The notes under the pieces were generated by a model that was given only the letters and a program-made list of their open reading frames with translations, had not been told where the DNA came from and did no database searches. From a bacterium (GTDB lineage: Bacteria > Patescibacteriota > Minisyncoccia > Phycocordibacterales > PALSA-1337), in NCBI GenBank assembly GCA_025355565.1, contig JANXZK010000002.1:15238-79237 (forward strand): a stretch of 64,000 bases of DNA, read 5' to 3'. The position numbers and the translations under genes were made by a program. Shown piece after piece: positions 5,539 through 64,000 of this stretch; the stretch's first letter is position 1; every line of letters begins with the position of its first letter.

Positions 5539-7716
5539 CTATGGTTGAACTTCCTTTATTGCCGCTTCGATCTCGTCCCTCGCCTGCGGATAGAAACTCT
5601 CTATTGAGCGCAGAATCGCCACCGCTTGATCAACATTTCCGGCTGCATATTGTGCTCGAGCCTTCTGGATCAGAGAACTTATACTTTCTGCTTGAGCTAT
5701 AAGCCTCTGATATACCTGAGTCGCCTCCGCCAATCGACCAGACGATGCGTAGCCTTTCGCTTCACTGACGAGAGCAGTGTCTGCCCCAAGAACTCGCATA
5801 CCCTCATCGCCTCGACCATCAATAACGAGCGCCACGGCATACGCAGATGCCGCCTTGGCATATCCTGGAGCCAATTCGTAGGCATGTTTTAGTACTGCCA
5901 CAGCCTGATCCATCTTATTCTCAAACATATAGACTGAGGCCAGTTCAAAAGCTATAATTTGTTCATTTGGAGCCAAAGATAATCCTTTAGTTAGCGAGGT
6001 CTCTGCCTCAAGAAGCTTGCCTATCCGTTTTAAGAAAGGACCGCTTACGTAGTAAACGTAAGCATCATTAGGAGTAGCGGCTATCTGTTCAACTATCCGT
6101 TGCAAAATCAGATCTATAAAAGATTGCTTGACCGCGCCACTGGCCGAAGGATTCTGCATGACATTATCAGCGCAAGATATCATCTCATAGAGGATATACT
6201 TGCTCGACATGGTGTTACCAAAAAATGTGGCCATCTTGAATAGATCCAGACTATTATCCGGCTTGGAACACGAGTAGCTGGCCTTACTAAGATACACATT
6301 GGAGAGCAAAGGTCTTATATTCAGATAATAGACCGTAAATATTGCAGTAACGATTATAACGGGTGCGATGACGTATTTCGTTGCATCTATAGAGACAGAT
6401 ACCTTCTGAGATTCCCTCACTTCAGCGCAACCATCTCGACTACCATGCAAGGAATCGACCAGAGCAAGTACTGTAAAGAAGAATACGTAGCTAGCCAATG
6501 TATCAAAAACAAAAAAGTTGTGGACGAAATATCCCAACAACAAACCTATCATAGTGCATTTCGTCCTATGAGCGATCGATGACTTGCATATCGTGATCAA
6601 AAGCGAAATGAAGATGGCTAGATATGCCAAAAACCCGGCGAAGCCGAAAGCAACAAGCTGATCGATCACTACATTATGTGCCATATCAACCCACTGCTCA
6701 ACGTTGTACATGGCCGGATTGTAATTCTTCTGAAAGGAATAGATAAAATTTCCCTGTCCCCAGCCCAAGATAGGCCTTTCCATGATTCCATTCATGCCTA
6801 TCGGCCAAATATATTGTCTGGATTGGTCACTTGCCGTCCAAGATATAGACGCAAATCTCTTCAGCGTAGAGTTACCCTGAACAGCTGAACTCGTACGATT
6901 CAACCAAAAAAACACACCGATAATGATCACGAGGGCTATGGCACAACCATACATGATGCGCAATCTCTTTCTAGACTTGGACCCCAAAACAGAGTAAACT
7001 GCAAGTGCGAGCATGGTCCCGAGAATCAGTCCCAGAAACGTACCCCTTGTGCCCGTCTCGAAGATGTCGTAGGTGAACAACAATGCCAGAACAACGTATG
7101 TGGAGAGCAGCGCCTTCGAACAATCACCTTGCTCCAATGTATCAATAAACAGATACACAGTGAAAAATACATTGAATAACAGATATGCTGCCAGGAAAGT
7201 TGGATTACCAAGGAATGAGTCAATGCGAATGGTATCGAAATGCATCGCCGTCCACCCAAAACTCTGGAACAATCCGTACACAGCGACGATAAGTGCAACC
7301 ACCAAAGACAGGTTGACCCATCTGCGCCACAGTCTCTTTGTATCGCCGACAGCGAACATACTTTTGATCACCAAATAAAATGCAAAAAGATGGGAGATCG
7401 TTATCCAGCCGTCCATTCGGTCAAAATTCGACCATAAACTTTGTAGAGGATCGATACCGACTAGATCACAGATGAAAGACACAGCTACAAATACTGCTAC
7501 AACGATAGTAAGTGGCGTAAATCTCGGACGATATCTCGTGTCTAGTATAGCCAAGATTGCCCAAGTAGCTACTGCAATTTCGACTAATACCCTAAAGTAA
7601 AACGCCTGCCCCGTCACATACGGGACAACCATTGACGATATCACCACGACTGGAAAGATGGGTACCAAAAATATGGCAGCCATCGTCACATATTTTGAGG
7701 TTCGCTTGATATCCAT
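5539..7716 (-). CDS. O-antigen ligase-like (Wzy_C) polytopic membrane protein with C-terminal TPR repeats
   Basis: ~10 TM helices, a large loop with a Wzy_C-like region, and a C-terminal TPR-like helical repeat region (AYELAPGYAKAASAYAVALV...). Confidence 0.6.
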   Translation of the reverse strand: MDIKRTSKYVTMAAIFLVPIFPVVVISSMVVPYVTGQAFYFRVLVEIAVATWAILAILDTRYRPRFTPLTIVVAVFVAVSFICDLVGIDPLQSLWSNFDRMDGWITISHLFAFYLVIKSMFAVGDTKRLWRRWVNLSLVVALIVAVYGLFQSFGWTAMHFDTIRIDSFLGNPTFLAAYLLFNVFFTVYLFIDTLEQGDCSKALLSTYVVLALLFTYDIFETGTRGTFLGLILGTMLALAVYSVLGSKSRKRLRIMYGCAIALVIIIGVFFWLNRTSSAVQGNSTLKRFASISWTASDQSRQYIWPIGMNGIMERPILGWGQGNFIYSFQKNYNPAMYNVEQWVDMAHNVVIDQLVAFGFAGFLAYLAIFISLLITICKSSIAHRTKCTMIGLLLGYFVHNFFVFDTLASYVFFFTVLALVDSLHGSRDGCAEVRESQKVSVSIDATKYVIAPVIIVTAIFTVYYLNIRPLLSNVYLSKASYSCSKPDNSLDLFKMATFFGNTMSSKYILYEMISCADNVMQNPSASGAVKQSFIDLILQRIVEQIAATPNDAYVYYVSGPFLKRIGKLLEAETSLTKGLSLAPNEQIIAFELASVYMFENKMDQAVAVLKHAYELAPGYAKAASAYAVALVIDGRGDEGMRVLGADTALVSEAKGYASSGRLAEATQVYQRLIAQAESISSLIQKARAQYAAGNVDQAVAILRSIESFYPQARDEIEAAIKEVQP

Positions 7717-7758: not shown

Positions 7759-9303
7759 CTACTTCCCTTTATTTAATTGTTCTCGTGTTGCGGGACCTAC
7801 TACACCAATCACACTTAAGCCGAATTTCTTTTGATACGCCTGAACTGCCGCCTTTGTCTGTGTTCCAAAATATCCTGTGATAACACCGGTAAATAAGCCA
7901 TCGCTCTTTAAACGTTCCTGGAGCAACCTAACCTCGGGGTCTAACACACCATATGCTGTCATACCGGAATACAGATAACGAGTGAACGTCTCGGAGACTG
8001 GCGCAGATTGGACATAAGCTGGCTGAATAGTCGTTTGAGCTAAACTTGCACCAGACGGAGTTTTCGATGAATTTCCGACCCATAGATAGCTTTGACCTAC
8101 TAGACCCCTAGCGTTTGTGAAAGAAATGACCAATGGCAAAGGTGGGATATCTTTGCCAGTAGATCTATAAGAGGCATAATACAGTCCATCGCTTCCCTGA
8201 CTCACTGCTGTCTGAACCCCACCGATTCTGACTTGCACATTTGTTACAGTTTCATTCGTTCCAAAATTGATACTAATGGTGCTCCCGGCGCCAAAGAATA
8301 AGCCTAGAACGTTGTTCGAGGAGATCGATACCGAAGAAAGTTGAGGTGGCTGATTGAACCCCGAAGTCACGGGAGCCAGAACTGTAGGCTGAGTCGGTAT
8401 AGCACTACCAGGAGCTAGAGAATGAACCACTATAGAGCCACAAAGATACCCTGCGGCACATACTGATACCGTTGACTGCCCCACAATGAGACCTTTTAAC
8501 ACTAGACTCGTACCACTAACGCTTGCCGATACTGCATCTTTATTTGTGTTCGTTATACTATCATAAAAACCTGGTCCATATATGCCAATATTCTGTGCAG
8601 GTTGTCCGGCGACGACATACGCAACAACTTGACTGAAAGTAATAGATTGGGTTGGTGCCCGAACCGATACATTAACCGTGCCACAACCGGCAGTCCCAGC
8701 ACAGACCGAAATGACTGACGACCCGACATTCAGACCAGTGACCAGCATCGAATTGTTATTTGCCTGAATAGTAGCCGATACTACTGATGGATTAGAATTC
8801 CCTTGTACCAACAACGTATTCACTGTATTATCTGCAAAAATATTTGCGCCCTGCCCTATTGTCAACGAAACATTGTTTTTAGATAGAGCTAATAATCCGT
8901 TTTGACCAGATATACTCCAAGTAGCCGGCCAAGTTACCTTCGTAGAGTCAGTCCCGTTTACTGATACGTATACAGACATTCCGCCACTCAATCCATAAGA
9001 ATTTGGAGCAACAGAAATGGTAAATGCGCCGTTAGAATCTGTGCTACCGATATCTATCGAGGTATAGTGAGTATCTACCGTAGTATTATTGGCGGAATAA
9101 TTTGGATAACTGAATTTCACAATTGCATTATGCTCTGCACCTATAACGCGTAGATTGACCAAAGAAGCGGTGCTAGTTAGAGTCAGTGACGGGGTAACCG
9201 AAGCCGACACTCGGTTATACGATGTTAACGGCATTATCATCAATACAGTTGTCATAAGAGTAATATTTGTAAAATATCTAAAGATATATTTGTTTGTTGC
9301 CAT
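7759..9303 (-). CDS. Secreted Ser/Thr/Asn/Gly-rich surface protein with C-terminal peptidoglycan-binding (PG_binding_1) domain
   Basis: N-terminal signal/TM segment, long low-complexity β-rich region, and a C-terminal LQERLKSDGLFTGVITGYFGTQTKAAVQAYQKKFGLSVIGVVGPATREQL PG_binding_1 motif. Confidence 0.6.
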   Translation of the reverse strand: MATNKYIFRYFTNITLMTTVLMIMPLTSYNRVSASVTPSLTLTSTASLVNLRVIGAEHNAIVKFSYPNYSANNTTVDTHYTSIDIGSTDSNGAFTISVAPNSYGLSGGMSVYVSVNGTDSTKVTWPATWSISGQNGLLALSKNNVSLTIGQGANIFADNTVNTLLVQGNSNPSVVSATIQANNNSMLVTGLNVGSSVISVCAGTAGCGTVNVSVRAPTQSITFSQVVAYVVAGQPAQNIGIYGPGFYDSITNTNKDAVSASVSGTSLVLKGLIVGQSTVSVCAAGYLCGSIVVHSLAPGSAIPTQPTVLAPVTSGFNQPPQLSSVSISSNNVLGLFFGAGSTISINFGTNETVTNVQVRIGGVQTAVSQGSDGLYYASYRSTGKDIPPLPLVISFTNARGLVGQSYLWVGNSSKTPSGASLAQTTIQPAYVQSAPVSETFTRYLYSGMTAYGVLDPEVRLLQERLKSDGLFTGVITGYFGTQTKAAVQAYQKKFGLSVIGVVGPATREQLNKGK

Positions 9304-10449: not shown

Positions 10450-12303
10450 CTACTGGAACATAACGGCCTTGAGTACACTTGAAATCTGTGAAGACTGCAA
10501 GAACAAGTTAGCCGGTGTTGAAGCTGAAGTTCCATAATTAAGTGTTGATACAGAGACTGTACCAGACTGTGCATTCGATCCGTTAGCTTGATAGGTGACC
10601 GTGAAGGTCTTTGTGCTACCTGGGCCAACGTAGAAGTACAGTGGAGGCACGCTCGTATCATCCTGGCTTGAATCATTATCAGAGAAATCTTTTGTAGAAG
10701 TCGAGATAGTGAATGTAGAAGAATGAGTGACTCCGACAGCCAAAGCTGCGTTCGTCGAAACATAGACTGGGTTGTTTCCAGCAGTCAAGCTATAAGTAAA
10801 CTTGAATGTTTGAGAACAAGTTGCCAATGTAGTGTCGCAAGTCTTTGCACCGAACGATGTTTGCAAGTTGCTTGCAGTGACGCCTGTGGAAGTAAAGGAC
10901 TGGGAATTCGCCAACAGAGTATTAGCTGAGTTATTTATAACAGTGTTATAAGTAGCATCAATAACTGATGGATTGAAGTAGGCACTAGTTGATACCGTTC
11001 CTGCTGTAGGCAGAGATACTCTCAATGTGGTGTTGTCAATGACTCCAGCAGTATTTTGGACAATCGTTGCTGAAATAGTCATAGGTACATATACATCAGC
11101 AGTCAACGGAACATTCAAATTACTGAATGTGGTAGTAGTACCAATCGTGCTAGCTGAATATGTCTGACCATTAATCTTCAATTGTACATTCGCAAGAGCT
11201 GAAGCAGCGGACACTCCAGCTAGGCTGTCAATTTTGACATCCAACCTCTGAAGTGTACCAGCTTCATTCTGAACCTTTATATCGAAGATACCGAGGACAA
11301 CGTTCTGAGTTTGAGCGGCTGTTGAAACCTGGATAAGTCCCTGTGCAGGTGAATTTGAATCAGTTGTTACAACAAGCTGACCAATGTTCGAGCCCTGGTA
11401 AGTGAAGCCTCTATATCCTGTACCCTCTGTTGTGGTAAGAGTACCGTCACCTCGTGTCTCTGTGCCTGTGATACCTGTTCCATCAACTGCACGAACCTGA
11501 GCCTGTGTGATAGCAATCGGACCACTTGAGCGATCTGAAACCGCGTTGAATGATAGATTGACTGTCAAGTATTTGCTCTGAGTTGCTTTAACAACAAGGT
11601 TGACTGGGACTGTGATCCTGTAATCTGAACCAACAGTGAGTTCGCTGAAATTACCTTGATTCAAGTTGTTGACTGAACCAACGACTGCACCTGTTTCATC
11701 CTTGATCGTGATCGAGTTAGCATAAAGCCAAACACGGGTATTGAAGTCAAGAGAGAAATTGGTAACTGCCATATCGGAAGCGTTAGCCTGAAGCTTGTAT
11801 CCTACAACATCGTAAGCCTGGCCCTTGTAAGCTGTTACGCCTGAAGGAGTTGTCCAGATTGAGAATGCAAGAGTACCAGCAATGCCTGGAGTTGTGATCC
11901 CTACTGGAGCACCAACTACTGGAGTTGTGCCTGTCCTAGGAGTACAATCATATCCAACTGGACAGACTACTGTACCTGTTGGAGTTGTTAGTGAAGAAAC
12001 ATCTGAACCATTCAAAGCTGCGCGGGTCAAAGGACCAACGAAACCTGTTGAAGGAATGCTGTTTTCTGCTTGGTAAGCTTTGACGGCTGCCTTGGTTTGT
12101 GAACCGAAGTAACCTGTCTGTGCTGCGCCTGAAGCAATAGAAGGAATACTGTACCCTGCGCTCATGAGCATTCTCTGAAGAGCTGTAACTGAAGCACCTG
12201 TTGAACCAACCGTTAGGTTAGAATTAAAGGTGAAACCCTGTGCTGAAGCGATCATAGCGACTGCCAATACGGCAACGCCTGTCGCGATCATTATTTTTTT
12301 CAT
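10450..12303 (-). CDS. Secreted protein with N-terminal PG_binding_1 domain and long Thr/Ser/Gly/Val-rich region (paralog of 9317..10345)
   Basis: Signal peptide MKKIMIATGVAVLAVAMIASA, then ALQRMLMSAGYSIPSIASGAAQTGYFGSQTKAAVKAYQAENSIPSTGFVGPLTRAAL. Confidence 0.6.
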   Translation of the reverse strand: MKKIMIATGVAVLAVAMIASAQGFTFNSNLTVGSTGASVTALQRMLMSAGYSIPSIASGAAQTGYFGSQTKAAVKAYQAENSIPSTGFVGPLTRAALNGSDVSSLTTPTGTVVCPVGYDCTPRTGTTPVVGAPVGITTPGIAGTLAFSIWTTPSGVTAYKGQAYDVVGYKLQANASDMAVTNFSLDFNTRVWLYANSITIKDETGAVVGSVNNLNQGNFSELTVGSDYRITVPVNLVVKATQSKYLTVNLSFNAVSDRSSGPIAITQAQVRAVDGTGITGTETRGDGTLTTTEGTGYRGFTYQGSNIGQLVVTTDSNSPAQGLIQVSTAAQTQNVVLGIFDIKVQNEAGTLQRLDVKIDSLAGVSAASALANVQLKINGQTYSASTIGTTTTFSNLNVPLTADVYVPMTISATIVQNTAGVIDNTTLRVSLPTAGTVSTSAYFNPSVIDATYNTVINNSANTLLANSQSFTSTGVTASNLQTSFGAKTCDTTLATCSQTFKFTYSLTAGNNPVYVSTNAALAVGVTHSSTFTISTSTKDFSDNDSSQDDTSVPPLYFYVGPGSTKTFTVTYQANGSNAQSGTVSVSTLNYGTSASTPANLFLQSSQISSVLKAVMFQ

Positions 12304-16579: not shown

Positions 16580-16684
16580 GCAACACAAAAGGATAAAGGG
16601 GACTTGTGAGCGCGACTGGCGCGAACACGAGGAATTTTTCAGCAGAAAAATATCCGTGCCCCTGAGTCCTTTTGTGTTGCTCAA
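16576..16684 (+). promoter_or_regulatory. Long nested stem-loop (18-bp perfect inverted repeat with a 73-nt structured spacer) between the upstream gene's stop and recA
   Basis: TTGAGCAACACAAAAGGA (16576-16593) pairs perfectly with TCCTTTTGTGTTGCTCAA (16667-16684). The spacer holds sub-hairpins (gcgcgactggcgcg; tttttcagcagaaaaa; ggggac...gtgcccc). Confidence 0.4.
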
Positions 16685-16738: not shown

Positions 16739-17881
16739 ATGTCATTTCAAAAACAGAAACCCAAAGCCAAGACCACTGTGCAAGAGTCGAAAAATGCAGA
16801 CATGCCCGAGGAAAAGGCGGACGCAGTCAAAACAAAAGAGATAGATACGGAAACAAACAACGATGAATCAGCGAAGAGTGGCCGTGATAACCCATCGAAC
16901 AAGAGGACAGCCACAGATGTGAGCGATGCCTTAAACGTGATCCGCATGAAATTTGGCGAGGACTCGATCATGAAGCTCGGCGACAAGCCGAAGGTCAACG
17001 TGAACGCCGTCCCGACCGGATCGATCGGTCTAGATTGGGCGCTCGGTATCGGCGGTATGCCTCGTGGCCGTATCGTCGAGATATTTGGACCTGAGTCATC
17101 GGGCAAGACTACCCTGGCACTACATGTCGTCGCTGAAGCTCAGAAACGTGGAGGAGTCTGCGCATATATCGACGCCGAGCACGCTATGGACCCCGAATAC
17201 GCAAAGAGGCTCGGTGTGAAGATCGATGATCTGCTCATCTCACAGCCTGATACAGGCGAACAAGCCCTGGAGATCGTCGACAGTCTCATACGCACAGGCA
17301 AGATGGATGTCGTAGTGATCGACTCCGTTGCCGCTCTCACACCAAAAGCCGAGATCGAAGGAGATATGGGCGCGCATCACGTAGGTGCGCAAGCTCGTCT
17401 CATGTCCCAGGCACTCCGTAAATTGACCGCCATCGTCGCCAAGTCCAAGACGATCGTCATTTTCATCAACCAGATCCGCATGCAGATAGGCATCATGTTC
17501 GGTAATCCTGAGACGACCCCGGGTGGCAAAGCACTCAAATTCTACGCTTCCGTTCGTCTCGATATCCGCCGTATCGCCCAGATCAAGAAAGGTGAAGAGG
17601 TCATGGGTGGACGTTGCCGAGTCAAAGTGGTGAAGAACAAAGTTGCCGCTCCATTCAAGCAGACTGAGTTCGATCTCATGTACAATGAGGGCATCTCCCA
17701 GGAAGGCGAGATCATCGCTCTCGGAGAAAAATATGGACTATTACAGAAATCCGGTTCCTCCTATTCATTTGGTGAAGAGAAACTCGGCCGTGGATATGAC
17801 GCAACCAGACAATTCCTCAAAGAAAACCCGAAGATCCGCGAAGAGATCTTGAAACAGATCAGAGCGAAATTAAAAGAATGA
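16739..17881 (+). CDS. recA: Recombinase RecA with a ~55-aa low-complexity N-terminal extension
   Basis: [18 protein letters not shown] Walker [58 protein letters not shown]. Confidence 0.92.
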
Positions 17882-36883: not shown

Positions 36884-38137
36884 TTATGCTTCCTTCAAAA
36901 TTTTGTCAATCTTCTCAGCGATCTTTTTGAAATCTCTCTCCTTCTTTCCCCGCGTCGTCTCAGCGGCAGTTCCTAGTCTGATACCTGACGGATCAAATGG
37001 CGGTCTCGTATCAAATGGTATGGCATTTTTATTCACGATGATGCCATCCTTCTCTAACTTTTCACTGGCATCTTTACCGGAGACAGCGCCCGCTCCGAGA
37101 GAATTCTTGACCCCGCCTTGCCACGTGTCAATAAGGACGAGATGACTATCTGTCCCATTTGAAATAATCCTCCAGCCGCGCTTCATGAGTTCGTTAGCTA
37201 ATGTTGCGGCATTTTTTATAACTTGTCTTGCGTATTTTTTAAATTTAGGTTGAATAGCCTCTCTCAGTGCCACGGCAACCGCCGCGACCTGATTCATATG
37301 TGGCCCTCCCTGAAGCCCTGGGAAAACCGCCTTGTCTATCTTTTTATCCAATTCACGAGTATCGCGTTTTACGAAAATGAGCGCCGCGCGTGGACCACGG
37401 AGAGTTTTGTGCGTTGTTGTCGTAACGATATCGGCAAATGGGAATGGTGATGGATACACTCCGCCAGCGACTAGTCCGGCGATGTGCGACATATCAACCA
37501 TCAGTATCGATCCTGCAGCATCAGCCACTTCCCTCATCCGAACCCAATCGATGATCCTCGGATAAGCAGTGTAACCGCAGACGATGATCGCTGGCTTCTC
37601 TCTGACCGCCGTTTCTCGCAATTGGTCATAATCCAAAACCTCCGTCGTCTTGTCGACACCATAAGGAACTTGCGTCCAGAATTTTCCTGAAGCAGTGACT
37701 TTCTGACCGTGAGTGAGGTGACCGCCTTGATCCAAAGACATACCCATGATCTTTGGAGCAGCGATCGTTGTCGGCGGGACAGATTTGTCCGCTGATGGCA
37801 CAGACTTCACATGCGTCGCTCCTAACACCCCGAGATATACTGCCAGATTCGCTGGTGAACCGGAGAGAGCTTGAACGTTCACGTGCCAGTCAGTCATGTT
37901 GAGCCCAAACAGCTTCAGTGCCCTCTCTTTGCAGAGCTCTTCGATCTTGTCAACGATCTCGTTGCCACCGTAATATCGCTTGCCGGGATAACCCTCCGCG
38001 TACTTGTTCGTCAATTCAGAACCGAGAGCGTCCAAGACATCATCGGAAACATAATTCTCCGAAGCGATCAGGTTTATAACTTTTTTTTGACGTTTCTGTT
38101 CTGCGCCGATCAGTTTCTTTATTTGTATATCTTTCAT
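36884..38137 (-). CDS. glyA: Serine hydroxymethyltransferase
   Basis: LIASENYVSDDVLDALGSELTNKYAEGYPGKRYYGG and the PLP-binding region ...TTTTHKTLRGPR. A start at 38173 is also possible. Confidence 0.9.
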   Translation of the reverse strand: MKDIQIKKLIGAEQKRQKKVINLIASENYVSDDVLDALGSELTNKYAEGYPGKRYYGGNEIVDKIEELCKERALKLFGLNMTDWHVNVQALSGSPANLAVYLGVLGATHVKSVPSADKSVPPTTIAAPKIMGMSLDQGGHLTHGQKVTASGKFWTQVPYGVDKTTEVLDYDQLRETAVREKPAIIVCGYTAYPRIIDWVRMREVADAAGSILMVDMSHIAGLVAGGVYPSPFPFADIVTTTTHKTLRGPRAALIFVKRDTRELDKKIDKAVFPGLQGGPHMNQVAAVAVALREAIQPKFKKYARQVIKNAATLANELMKRGWRIISNGTDSHLVLIDTWQGGVKNSLGAGAVSGKDASEKLEKDGIIVNKNAIPFDTRPPFDPSGIRLGTAAETTRGKKERDFKKIAEKIDKILKEA

Positions 38138-38236
38138 GGATATATCGTAGCATATTTCATTGATAAATCTCATTGTTGAATAGCCCCCTACACCTCACCC
38201 CCGAACGACCGAGCATTCTTTCTTAGCAAGATATTA

Positions 38237-38274
38237 ATAAAAAAGTTCCCGTTGCACCCGATGCGCAACGGGAA
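38237..38274 (-). terminator. Putative Rho-independent terminator (minus strand) upstream of glyA
   Basis: On the minus strand: TTCCCGTTGC-(loop)-GCAACGGGAA followed by cttttttatt. Confidence 0.45.
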
Positions 38275-38563
38275 CCGAACCATGAACTCCGAACCACACC
38301 ACTATGAAAAGTCCTCGTAAACCGAGCCACGAACAGCGTAGCTCCCTTCCCCGAGAACCAGAGGAAGGAAAAGCGAAAATGCTACAAAAAGACAAAGAGC
38401 TGCGCTGTCCGACGTCGCACCAGCCGAAAGGCTAGAGAAGGCGACGACGTCGGACACACGCATCTGGCGACCGTGATGGAAAGATGAACACCGTAAAAAC
38501 TGTAAAATAGCGATAGCGCCGCTCTGTCATTACTCTGTCATGAGACTACTCCTACCTGATCAT

Positions 38564-40842: not shown

Positions 40843-40905
40843 ATCATTATCAATCGTGATGTTTTTTATTTTTCATTTTGAAATTTCAATATTACATTAA
40901 CTATC

Positions 40906-43188: not shown

Positions 43189-43236
43189 GGTGGTAATGTA
43201 AGATTGAAAAATTAAAATGAAAAATGATAATGTAAC

Positions 43237-44008: not shown

Positions 44009-44048
44009 ATTTTTTTATTAAAAAACCCCGCCTGGGGACAACAGGTGC

Positions 44049-44077
44049 ATAGTACACCCATTGCCCCGCAAAGTCAA
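44049..44077 (-). promoter_or_regulatory. Sigma70-like promoter (TTGACT-17 bp-TACTAT) for secE-nusG-rplK
   Basis: The minus strand reads TTGACTttgcggggcaatgggtgTACTAT, ~40 nt upstream of the secE ATG. Two 12-bp direct repeats TAGATGCGCATT (44078-44089 and 44091-44102) lie immediately upstream. Confidence 0.45.
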
Positions 44078-44163
44078 TAGATGCGCATTGTAGATGCGCA
44101 TTATGTAATCTCTCGCACCTCACCCTCGAACGACCGAGCGCTCTTTGTAGAACGATAAAGACG

Positions 44164-44952
44164 TTAATTTATCTCGTAAGTGACACTGACACTACTGGTC
44201 ACCTTCTGCTCACCGACAGATACTTCCGGTGCGGCAAGGGCTTGTGAAGTCATCATCTTGTCTGCAACACCCATGCCGAACATCACCGGTCTCGGACTAT
44301 TTCCATTTTCAGAGAAACTGATAACGCGAACGAGGCTTACGCCGAGCTGACCGGCTAATTCCTTTGCCTTATCTTGGGCTTTTGCAATAGCGACACCGCG
44401 AGCCTGTGCTTGGACCGCGTCCAGCTTGTCAACAGAGAAGGTCAATCCGTTCACATTCTCAACCCCGAGGGAACCGATAGAAGCAAACAAGGCGCCAGCT
44501 TTGCTGAGATCACGAACTTTGACCTGTGTGCTCTGGCTGACATCATAGCCAGTCAAGACTGACTTGCTCGGTCGACAGACACCAGTCGAACTGCATACAC
44601 CAGTCTGAAATTCATAATGAGGATTGATATTATATGAAGTCGTCTGGATATCCTTATCAGCTACTCCCCCATCACGAACAACCTTTATGGCCGCGTTAGA
44701 TTGGTTTGTTGCCTGCTTCTGCGCATCGACTACCGAGCTCGCTGTTTTTGTAACTGTGAAAGAAAAAGTCGCGACATCTGGTATCGCCACCGCGTCACCG
44801 GTACCTTCGACGGTGATCGTATTTACGACCTGATCGCTCTTGCCGACATAACCGATAGACCTGAGCTCCTTGATCGATACGACAAAGAGAAAGATCGCCA
44901 ATAATACCAATGCACCGATACCAACTTTCCAAAAATTTTGTGGGGCATTCAT
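44164..44952 (-). CDS. SIMPL-domain (DUF541) protein with N-terminal TM anchor
   Basis: N-terminal TM helix, then ITVEGTGDAVAIPDVATFSFTV...AQARGVAIAKAQDKAKELAGQLG, which fits SIMPL/OMP28-like proteins. Confidence 0.65.
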   Translation of the reverse strand: MNAPQNFWKVGIGALVLLAIFLFVVSIKELRSIGYVGKSDQVVNTITVEGTGDAVAIPDVATFSFTVTKTASSVVDAQKQATNQSNAAIKVVRDGGVADKDIQTTSYNINPHYEFQTGVCSSTGVCRPSKSVLTGYDVSQSTQVKVRDLSKAGALFASIGSLGVENVNGLTFSVDKLDAVQAQARGVAIAKAQDKAKELAGQLGVSLVRVISFSENGNSPRPVMFGMGVADKMMTSQALAAPEVSVGEQKVTSSVSVTYEIN

Positions 44953-55399: not shown

Positions 55400-55472
55400 G
55401 CGCCCTTAGCTCAGTTGGTAGAGCGACCCCTTTACACGGGGAAGGTCAGGAGTTCGAATCTCTTAGGGCGCA
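55400..55472 (+). tRNA. tRNA-Val (anticodon TAC)
   Basis: GCGCCCT-TA-GCTC-AGTTGGTA-GAGC-G-ACCCC-TTTACAC-GGGGA-AGGTC-AGGAG-TTCGAAT-CTCTT-AGGGCGC-A. Perfect 7-bp acceptor, D-loop with GG, T-loop TTCGAAT, anticodon UAC. CCA is not fully encoded. Confidence 0.85.
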
Positions 55473-55603
55473 CCGAACGAAGTGAGTGAGGTGTGCCCTA
55501 GCGAGCCAACTGCTTGGCTCGCGCAAGAGATTCGAAAAGGTCGAATCTATTTCTGAGGACGTAGTCCGAAGAAATAAGAGACCTGTACAGGTCATGTAAG
55601 GAC

Positions 55604-55622
55604 CGAATCTCTTAGGGCGCAC
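55604..55622 (+). repeat. 19-bp perfect direct repeat of the tRNA-Val 3' end (CGAATCTCTTAGGGCGCAC; first copy 55455..55473), an att-like duplication
   Basis: Seen directly. The copies are 149 bp apart. The intervening 130 bp contain a 9-bp stem hairpin (GCGAGCCAA/TTGGCTCGC), a 14-bp palindrome (GACCTGTACAGGTC) and a third partial copy (GGTCGAATCT). Confidence 0.6.
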
Positions 55623-63520: not shown

Positions 63521-64000
63521 ATGCCTGAGCAGTCTACAGAAAAAAGAGTGAAATTTAATAAGGGCGACCAGGCCGAGTTTTTGGCATCTATAATGAAAAA
63601 AAACAATATAACAACCGAAACACTGGCCGCTATAGCGAAAGTCAGCGTGAGACAAATCTCTCGATGGGTAACTGGAAAATATTCCCTTCCACTTTCTGTC
63701 GTTACAACATTATCGAAGAAATCTGGCTCTACGATACCTAGAAACATAACGATATTCGATCGATATTCTCACACCCATACGGCTGGTCGCAAAGGTGGAC
63801 GAGCAACGATGAAATTGTACGGGGTAGTACCAGGGTCAGAGACAAACCGACTATCTGCCTGGAATAAATGGTGGATATCTTCAGGAAAGGCAAAGGTCAT
63901 CAAAGCCTCGAAGAAGCATGTCACTCTACCAAATGCTTCCAGCGGACTCGCCGAATTTACTGGCATCATGATGGGAGATGGTGGTTTATCTAGACATCAG
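63521..64000 (+). CDS. Hypothetical HTH-domain protein, partial (runs off 3' window edge); C-terminal LAGLIDADG-like motif
   Basis: ATG at 63521 is preceded by TATAAT (63508-63513). Translation has HTH-like TETLAAIAKVSVRQISRWVTGKY and later AEFTGIMMGDGGLS, which resembles LAGLIDADG. It is absent from the ORF track because no stop lies in the window. Confidence 0.4.
   Translation, partial: MPEQSTEKRVKFNKGDQAEFLASIMKKNNITTETLAAIAKVSVRQISRWVTGKYSLPLSVVTTLSKKSGSTIPRNITIFDRYSHTHTAGRKGGRATMKLYGVVPGSETNRLSAWNKWWISSGKAKVIKASKKHVTLPNASSGLAEFTGIMMGDGGLSRHQ

Follow-up and report, generated by a model that had tools for sequence, protein, structure and literature searches.

The window analyzed here is a 64-kb stretch of DNA (64,000 nt) from a member of Candidatus Taylorbacteria (Patescibacteria), an affiliation taken from the names of the closest NusG and SIMPL homologues. 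The region of interest carries, in this order, folD, a SIMPL-domain gene, secE, nusG, rplK, a hypothetical gene, the folA/dcd/thyA block, a dCMP deaminase gene, tmk, a structured ncRNA gene, glyA and argS. With the exception of the folA-dcd-thyA block, which lies on the opposite strand, these genes are all encoded on the minus strand. Seven of them (folD, folA, thyA, dcd, the dCMP deaminase gene, tmk and glyA) constitute a folate/thymidylate cluster around a non-coding, G-rich repeat of 31-43 bp that is present in two copies: copy 1 upstream of glyA, and copy 2 upstream of secE-nusG (Table 1). The sequence-only reading had named the minus-strand genes downstream of the two copies as glyA and secE-nusG, and both assignments were right (PF00464 SHMT for glyA; secE-nusG-rplK for the other unit). 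Syntenic loci from six or seven Taylorbacteria lineages (L015/16, L017/18, L019/20, L006-8, L009-11 and L012-14), in which the gene order is the same, were used for comparison.

The core of the repeat is 24 nt long and follows the pattern CACCTCACCC[C/T]CGAACGACCGAGC; on the plus strand it reads CACCTCACCCCCGAACGACCGAGC in copy 1 and CACCTCACCCTCGAACGACCGAGC in copy 2. The two cores are identical at 23 of 24 positions, the single difference being a C/T transition, which agrees in both position and identity with the motif pair first described at 38191 and 44116. The identity of about 29/32 claimed for an extended motif came out slightly lower, at 28/32 (28/31 in the ungapped comparison, direct-repeat family D9). 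In a gapped local alignment the similarity extends over 43 nt of copy 1 (38191-38233) and 42 nt of copy 2 (44116-44157), with approximately 35/43 identical positions and one gap; this gives a minus-strand repeat unit of TATCTTGCTAAGAAAGAATGCTCGGTCGTTCGGGGGTGAGGTG, which in the gene sense can be written (TATC..)AAAGAryGCTCGGTCGTTCGrGGGTGAGGTG. The copies are in direct orientation and 5,925 bp apart. The core has a G+C content of 17/24 (71%), compared with ~45% for the genome, and 13 of its sense-strand bases are G. Neither dyad symmetry within the motif nor an inverted-repeat partner in or near it was found, and there is no 10-11-bp direct-repeat symmetry. The only internal regularities of the core are TCGG-TCGT-TCGG and GGTG-A-GGTG, with a period of 4-5 nt. 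No open reading frame with a start codon is common to both copies, as read from the sequence.

Several results establish that the repeat is real. When both strands of the 64-kb window were scanned for the motif at up to 3 mismatches, exactly two sites were returned, one before glyA and one before secE-nusG-rplK; 100 dinucleotide-preserving shuffles returned none. The similarity continues into the 19-nt flank adjoining the core at a level above chance (p ~0.006-0.009, from 26 of 3000 random and 18 of 3000 shuffled anchored 25-mers). If the unit is taken as 43 nt, the differences are unevenly spread, at 1/24 in the core and 7/19 in the flank (Fisher p=0.014). D9 is also the sole direct repeat in the window that exceeds the chance-level families, which lie at 70-80%. 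The window is matched at 100% identity by Logan contigs built independently from other sequencing runs, of which L004 has both copies and L005 the secE copy; the repeat is therefore not an assembly artefact. It is real and not a product of chance.

Table 1. Features of the two repeat-bearing spacers, in window positions
Feature	Position	Strand	Remarks
Repeat copy 1	38191..38221; core 38191-38214; probable full unit 38191-38233	-	sense strand AAAGAATGCTCGGTCGTTCGGGGGTGAGGTG
Repeat copy 2	44116..44146; core 44116-44139; probable full unit 44116-44157	-	sense strand AAAGAGCGCTCGGTCGTTCGAGGGTGAGGTG
glyA extended -10 and ATG	38135..38152; TGCTACGAT 38152-38144; ATG 38137-38135	-	located by sequence; promoter function predicted
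Intrinsic terminator of the ncRNA gene	38244..38276	-	strong; 14-bp stem and T-run; same arrangement in relatives
Structured ncRNA gene, ~300 nt	~38238-38536, between tmk and glyA	-	own promoter, strong terminator
secE promoter-like TTGACT-17-TACTAT	44049..44077	-	conserved in relatives
Tandem 13-nt duplication AATGCGCATCTA(C/T) x2	44078..44103	-	between copy 2 and secE -35
SIMPL-domain gene (Pfam PF04402) stop codon	44164..44166 (gene 44164-44952)	-	

At the first site, copy 1 starts ~10 nt past the T-run of the ncRNA terminator. It ends 41 nt before the glyA -10 hexamer, 17 nt before the ATG of the longest open reading frame and 53 nt before the conserved glyA start (38137). No -35 element is recognisable in front of glyA. 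The extended -10 is shared: the sequence TRTGyTAnnAT follows the ncRNA terminator in the window and in L006, L009, L015, L017, L019 and L012. In five lineages the conserved glyA ATG lies only 6 nt past the -10 hexamer, a spacing that suggests a leaderless glyA mRNA. An arrangement of TACATT followed by 4-6 nt and an ATG, with no Shine-Dalgarno sequence, was also seen before nusG, rplK and dcd. A literature search on leaderless transcripts and promoters in Patescibacteria found nothing.

The ncRNA gene that precedes copy 1 has features of its own. Its promoter reads AGGAGTAGTCT, and in the relatives AGGAGTAATCT preceded by CTTGCA. The predicted fold is stable (MFE -119 kcal/mol, z = -6.0 relative to shuffled sequences), and no Rfam family matched it. 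An RNA is encoded at the same position in 7 related lineages, with lengths of 142-309 nt, and alignment is possible for the 3' modules only. It lies directly upstream of glyA in the folate/thymidylate cluster; glyA nevertheless has its own promoter. A derivation of the repeat from this adjacent ncRNA, which contains GCTCGGTTTACGAGG, was considered and rejected, the similarity not being significant.

At the second site, the extended unit of copy 2 starts 6 nt past the stop codon of the SIMPL gene, and the copy ends 38 nt before the secE -35, 61 nt before the -10 and 107 nt before the secE ATG. The tandem pair of 13-mers lies in the interval from copy 2 to the -35, which it adjoins, and indicates that this spacer grows by local duplication. 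This pair, an exact repeat of AATGCGCATCTA that contains the palindrome ATGCGCAT, represents either the product of slippage or two small operator-like sites. The secE promoter and leader (44020-44077, minus strand; TTGACT-17-TAYWMT followed by ACACaTGTTATCCCCAGGCGGGGTTTTTTAATAAAA) are almost invariant among the lineages, where coding DNA is only ~80% identical, and occupy the same place in L006, L009, L015, L017 and L019. Inside the secE-nusG leader there is a terminator-like hairpin with a T-run, which may be an attenuator, conceivably a NusG/NusA-dependent autoregulatory terminator.

Comparison with the relatives separates what is fixed at these two sites from what is not. By SIMPL protein identity, the nearest lineage is L015/16 (86%), followed by L017/18 (81%), L019/20 (77%) and L006-8 (73%); coding DNA of the nearest relatives is ~76-81% identical. 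Three elements are kept across lineages: at the first site the ncRNA terminator and the extended -10 of glyA, and at the second the secE -35/-10 together with the leader ACACaTGTTATCCCCAGGCGGGGTTTTTTAATAAAA. The DNA between them is not conserved. From the T-run to the glyA extended -10, the spacer measures 84 nt in the window and 6-14 nt in L017, L006, L009, L019 and L012; in L015 it consists of ~52 unrelated nt and a tandemly duplicated -10 region. From the SIMPL stop codon to the secE -35 it measures 86 nt in the window and 18, 40, 53, ~115 and ~215 nt in relatives, so that the two spacers together range from ~6 to ~215 nt among the relatives. Neither of the orthologous spacers in L006-L020 contains the motif, though the -35/-10 elements and the leader are conserved there; even the nearest relative, however, is no more than ~80% identical in coding DNA. 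Both copies thus lie in fast-evolving, insertion-prone parts of otherwise conserved regulatory regions. An attempt to tell which copy is the ancestral one by comparing the spacers with those of L015 and L006 gave no significant similarity (p 0.2-0.6), and no direction of copying is claimed.

Lineage-specific insertions of other kinds were observed in these same spacers. MITE-like palindromic insertions of ~100-130 nt occur in spacers of L019 and L010. The two L019 copies (8336-8441 and 10800-10930, 2.4 kb apart) share the internal core GTGAAGGGGGCTTGCGAGC ... GAGCACGAGGAATTTTC, and the L010 insertion (~6600-6710, ~100 nt) is flanked by a duplicated DnaA-box-like TGTGGATAAC. Furthermore, the 3' end of glyA is directly repeated in L006 (45 nt; 16609-16653 and 17787-17831), where the repeats bracket an inserted sigma-70-family gene, and in L010 (23 nt; 8256-8278 and 10989-11011), where they bracket a sigma-70-family gene and a further ORF. 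The bracketed DNA is absent from the window and looks like an insertion with target duplication.

The search for additional copies covered the 64-kb window and 1.4 kb past one of its ends. In the window, no third copy was found at up to 8/24 or 11/31 mismatches, thresholds at which shuffled sequences return 0-4 matches, and no other gene is preceded by a site of at least 16/24 identity. The GTGAGGTG 8-mers found elsewhere in the window, one of them beside tRNA-Val, were considered as half-sites and rejected, their number being that expected by chance. No extra copy was present on the Logan contigs reached through window-edge proteins (up to 1.4 kb past the window), and the contigs of the strain itself are all clonal, without variants that would inform on variation within the species. 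Nor did the motif occur, with up to 7/24 mismatches allowed, in the ~290 kb of loci that were fetched, chiefly from related Taylorbacteria lineages (SIMPL identity of 86%, 81%, 77%, 73% or less), and word-7 blastn of the whole spacers against the relatives' loci gave no match.

Public collections were scanned with a 21-mer core containing one N (185,579 species-representative genomes and the JGI metagenomes) and with a 20-mer (IMG/VR). These collections evidently do not hold the source genome; one match was obtained in the species genomes, two in the JGI metagenomes and none in IMG/VR. All three, one in a Janibacter MAG and two in metagenome contigs, stem from unrelated organisms of high G+C content and have no similarity in the flanks, and their number is about that expected by chance, by our estimate, for 20 specified bases in ~1.2e12 positions. 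Since only chance matches were found, the motif is not a widespread element. BLAST searches against phages with the region around copy 1, and against plasmids with the region around copy 2, gave no match.

These results bear directly on the idea that the window happens to include two members of a larger, genome-wide set of short repeats, such as REP-, MITE- or solo-end-like remnants of a mobile element. The small dispersed or palindromic elements that relatives carry in like spacers (two within 20 kb in L019, one in L010) argue in its favour, and a preference for certain target sites could explain why the A/T-rich flank (TATC...AAAGA) is similar as well. The two copies resemble REP/BIME, ERIC and MITE-like repeats in being short, non-coding, intergenic, present more than once, lineage-specific and located between a terminator or stop codon and a promoter. 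They differ from them in number and structure: there are two copies in 64 kb, each of 31-43 nt, with no palindrome or terminal inverted repeat, no inverted-repeat partner, no hairpin that is more stable than those of shuffled sequences and no target-site duplication. In addition, the resemblance of the repeat to the MITE-like elements of L019 and L010 is not significant, the window has no degenerate extra copies, and the public collections scanned contain no related sequence that would place it in a defined family. We regard a genome-wide family as unlikely.

The position of both copies upstream of inferred promoters raises a second alternative, in which the motif would be a lineage-specific cis-regulatory site: a candidate protein would bind the 24-bp core and couple glyA (C1 metabolism) to secE-nusG-rplK, acting as an upstream activator, a roadblock or an insulator. 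The sequence-only reading had pointed to two features that the copies share, their orientation with respect to the gene downstream and their closeness to a promoter. This is true but carries little weight, since almost every gene here points the same way, and in a compact genome a position between co-directional genes will always fall just upstream of a start. In favour of such a site, the core has diverged less than the flank beside it. The locus is also a folate/thymidylate cluster, and the motif ends 41 nt from one -10 and 61 nt from the other, a difference of 20 bp that comes close to two helical turns. This spacing is nevertheless not fixed, and by our estimate the agreement in helical phase has a probability of ~30% by chance. 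The motif is missing at both orthologous promoters in all relatives, which have kept the promoters themselves. The core lacks the dyad or the 10-11-bp repeats of a typical site, its internal period being 4-5 nt, and the window offers neither a third site of at least 16/24 upstream of other genes nor a candidate regulator. The combination of 23/24 identity with similarity in the flank also points to recent duplication rather than to selection for binding.

Set beside known transcription-factor operators, the copies are alike in that the same sequence stands upstream of two promoters in the same orientation. They are unlike them in their asymmetry, in the near-identity of 24 nt together with the flank, in their absence from orthologous promoters and in the variable spacing to the -10. 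A regulatory role of this kind is possible but doubtful. A more specific version, in which the core would be a newly evolved, asymmetric protein-binding site spread by copy-paste and serving as a common upstream regulator or polar roadblock for glyA and secE-nusG-rplK, is distinctly improbable. If true, it would be a case of regulon growth by binding-site duplication in an ultra-small genome with very few transcription factors.

An action of the motif as RNA was also considered, be it as part of a 3' UTR or read-through transcript, as a Shine-Dalgarno-like or ops/pause-like element, or as the C-rich 5' end of an antisense transcript. Both copies can form a 5-bp hairpin, CUCGG-UCGU-UCGRG, in which the single G/A difference of the core preserves the pair (U-G in one copy, U-A in the other), and the core includes a Shine-Dalgarno-like GAGGUG. 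These features are outweighed by position and by folding statistics. With a strong terminator before it and the glyA promoter after it, copy 1 is probably not transcribed in the sense direction. The folds of the motif, alone or in context, are unexceptional relative to shuffled sequences (z-scores of -0.2, 0.0, -1.45 and -1.33), and the Rfam search gave no match at the gathering score, returning only noise at E up to 10 and nothing at E<1. The nearest start codons are at least 14-17 nt away, the copies have no small ORF in common, and no promoter-like site on the plus strand overlaps either of them. We consider an RNA function very unlikely. A cis-regulatory RNA or leader in particular was rejected, as the motif lies upstream of the inferred promoters and not in a leader, and has neither a significant fold nor an Rfam family.

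A UP element was rejected on composition and placement. UP elements are A/T-rich, abut the -35 (approximately -40 to -60) and are contacted by the alpha-CTD. The repeat resembles them in its position upstream of promoters, but 17 of the 24 core bases are G or C, the secE copy is 38 nt away from the -35, and glyA has no recognisable -35. Among the interpretations put forward with the initial description, that of a small dispersed repeat fits best, with two copies demonstrated, and those of a UP or RNA element fell to the 71% G+C content, the lack of a fold and the lack of an Rfam match. Comparison with boxA, ops, ECF and sigma-54 promoters, G-quadruplexes, Ter, parS and dif gave partial matches or matches on the wrong strand or at the wrong position, and these identities were set aside.

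The direct orientation of the copies suggests yet another role, namely that of recombination sites, either att-like or substrates of RecA-mediated amplification or deletion, bracketing the 5.9-kb secE-nusG-rplK-folA-dcd-thyA-tmk segment. Besides the orientation and the 5,925-bp spacing, the length of the repeat, which is near the minimum for homologous recombination, is compatible with such a role. The bracketed genes, however, are core genes whose order is the same in all relatives, none of which has the repeat; the segment contains no integrase or recombinase gene and shows no composition anomaly. We find this explanation scarcely credible.

The explanation we prefer, with a probability of roughly one half, is that the repeat arose by a recent, lineage-specific copy-paste of spacer DNA and constitutes a small strain- or species-specific dispersed repeat. 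A single non-coding piece of ~31-43 bp would have given rise to both copies by descent, through a recent duplication within the Candidatus Taylorbacteria lineage into two weakly constrained spacers. Each of these spacers runs from the end of one transcription unit to the next promoter, that is, from the ncRNA terminator to the glyA -10 and from the SIMPL stop codon to the secE -35. Duplicative insertion, ectopic template-switch repair and a miniature element are all plausible origins. The identity of 23/24 with a similar flank is far above what convergence of binding sites would produce, and therefore speaks for copies related by descent. The absence of the motif from all relatives, together with the hypervariability of the spacers, makes an old, conserved regulatory role unlikely. 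From these two lines of evidence we infer both the copy-paste origin and the absence of such an old role. The repeat lies outside the conserved promoter and leader machinery of both operons.

Four points count against the duplication reading. The count of two copies comes from 64 kb of the genome and 1.4 kb past one end, so that a multi-copy family or regulon elsewhere is conceivable; if the unit is 43 nt, the core is better conserved than the flank, hinting at constraint on the core or at a target-site preference; the relatives stand at 76-81% coding identity, a distance at which true operators can also turn over; and no mechanism or element was found that would copy 31-43 bp over 5.9 kb. The closest parallels are the local spacer duplications of these genomes (the 13-mer at 44078-44103, the -10 region of L015 and the 45-nt repeat of L006), which are likewise short, recent and lineage-specific, consist of non-coding or gene-end DNA and are situated in the same neighbourhood. 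Those duplications differ in being either tandem or flanking an identifiable insertion, whereas the copies described here are 5.9 kb apart with no inserted gene between them.

Other repeats were noted in and near the window. The last 19 nt of tRNA-Val(TAC), CGAATCTCTTAGGGCGCAC, are exactly repeated 149 nt downstream (55604-55622; region 55400-55622, plus strand), which looks like an att-type duplication or a small insertion. A 37-nt inverted repeat of 84% identity (40863-40899 and 43194-43230) corresponds to an A/T-rich promoter module, TTTTTCATTTTnAAnTTTCAATnTTACATTA, which stands directly upstream of dcd on the plus strand and of rplK on the minus strand; L017 carries a similar module three times, in front of nusG, the hypothetical gene and dcd. 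Beyond window position 64000, positions 1-1400 of L021 hold a LAGLIDADG_3 ORF and, on the opposite strand, a tRNA-like sequence.

As it stands, the repeat matters little: one more short intergenic repeat confined to its lineage, it is strain-specific, present in two copies in spacer DNA of an uncultivated member of Candidatus Taylorbacteria, and gives no hint of a conserved function. It does illustrate how, in compact genomes, small duplications and miniature insertions gather in the DNA that separates a terminator or stop codon from the promoter after it, while the adjoining promoters and leaders do not change. Should a protein turn out to bind the core, few cis-regulatory elements of Patescibacteria would have been defined before it. 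More rewarding targets at this locus are probably the structured ncRNA upstream of glyA, which is unclassified, and the secE-nusG leader with its invariant, terminator-like form.
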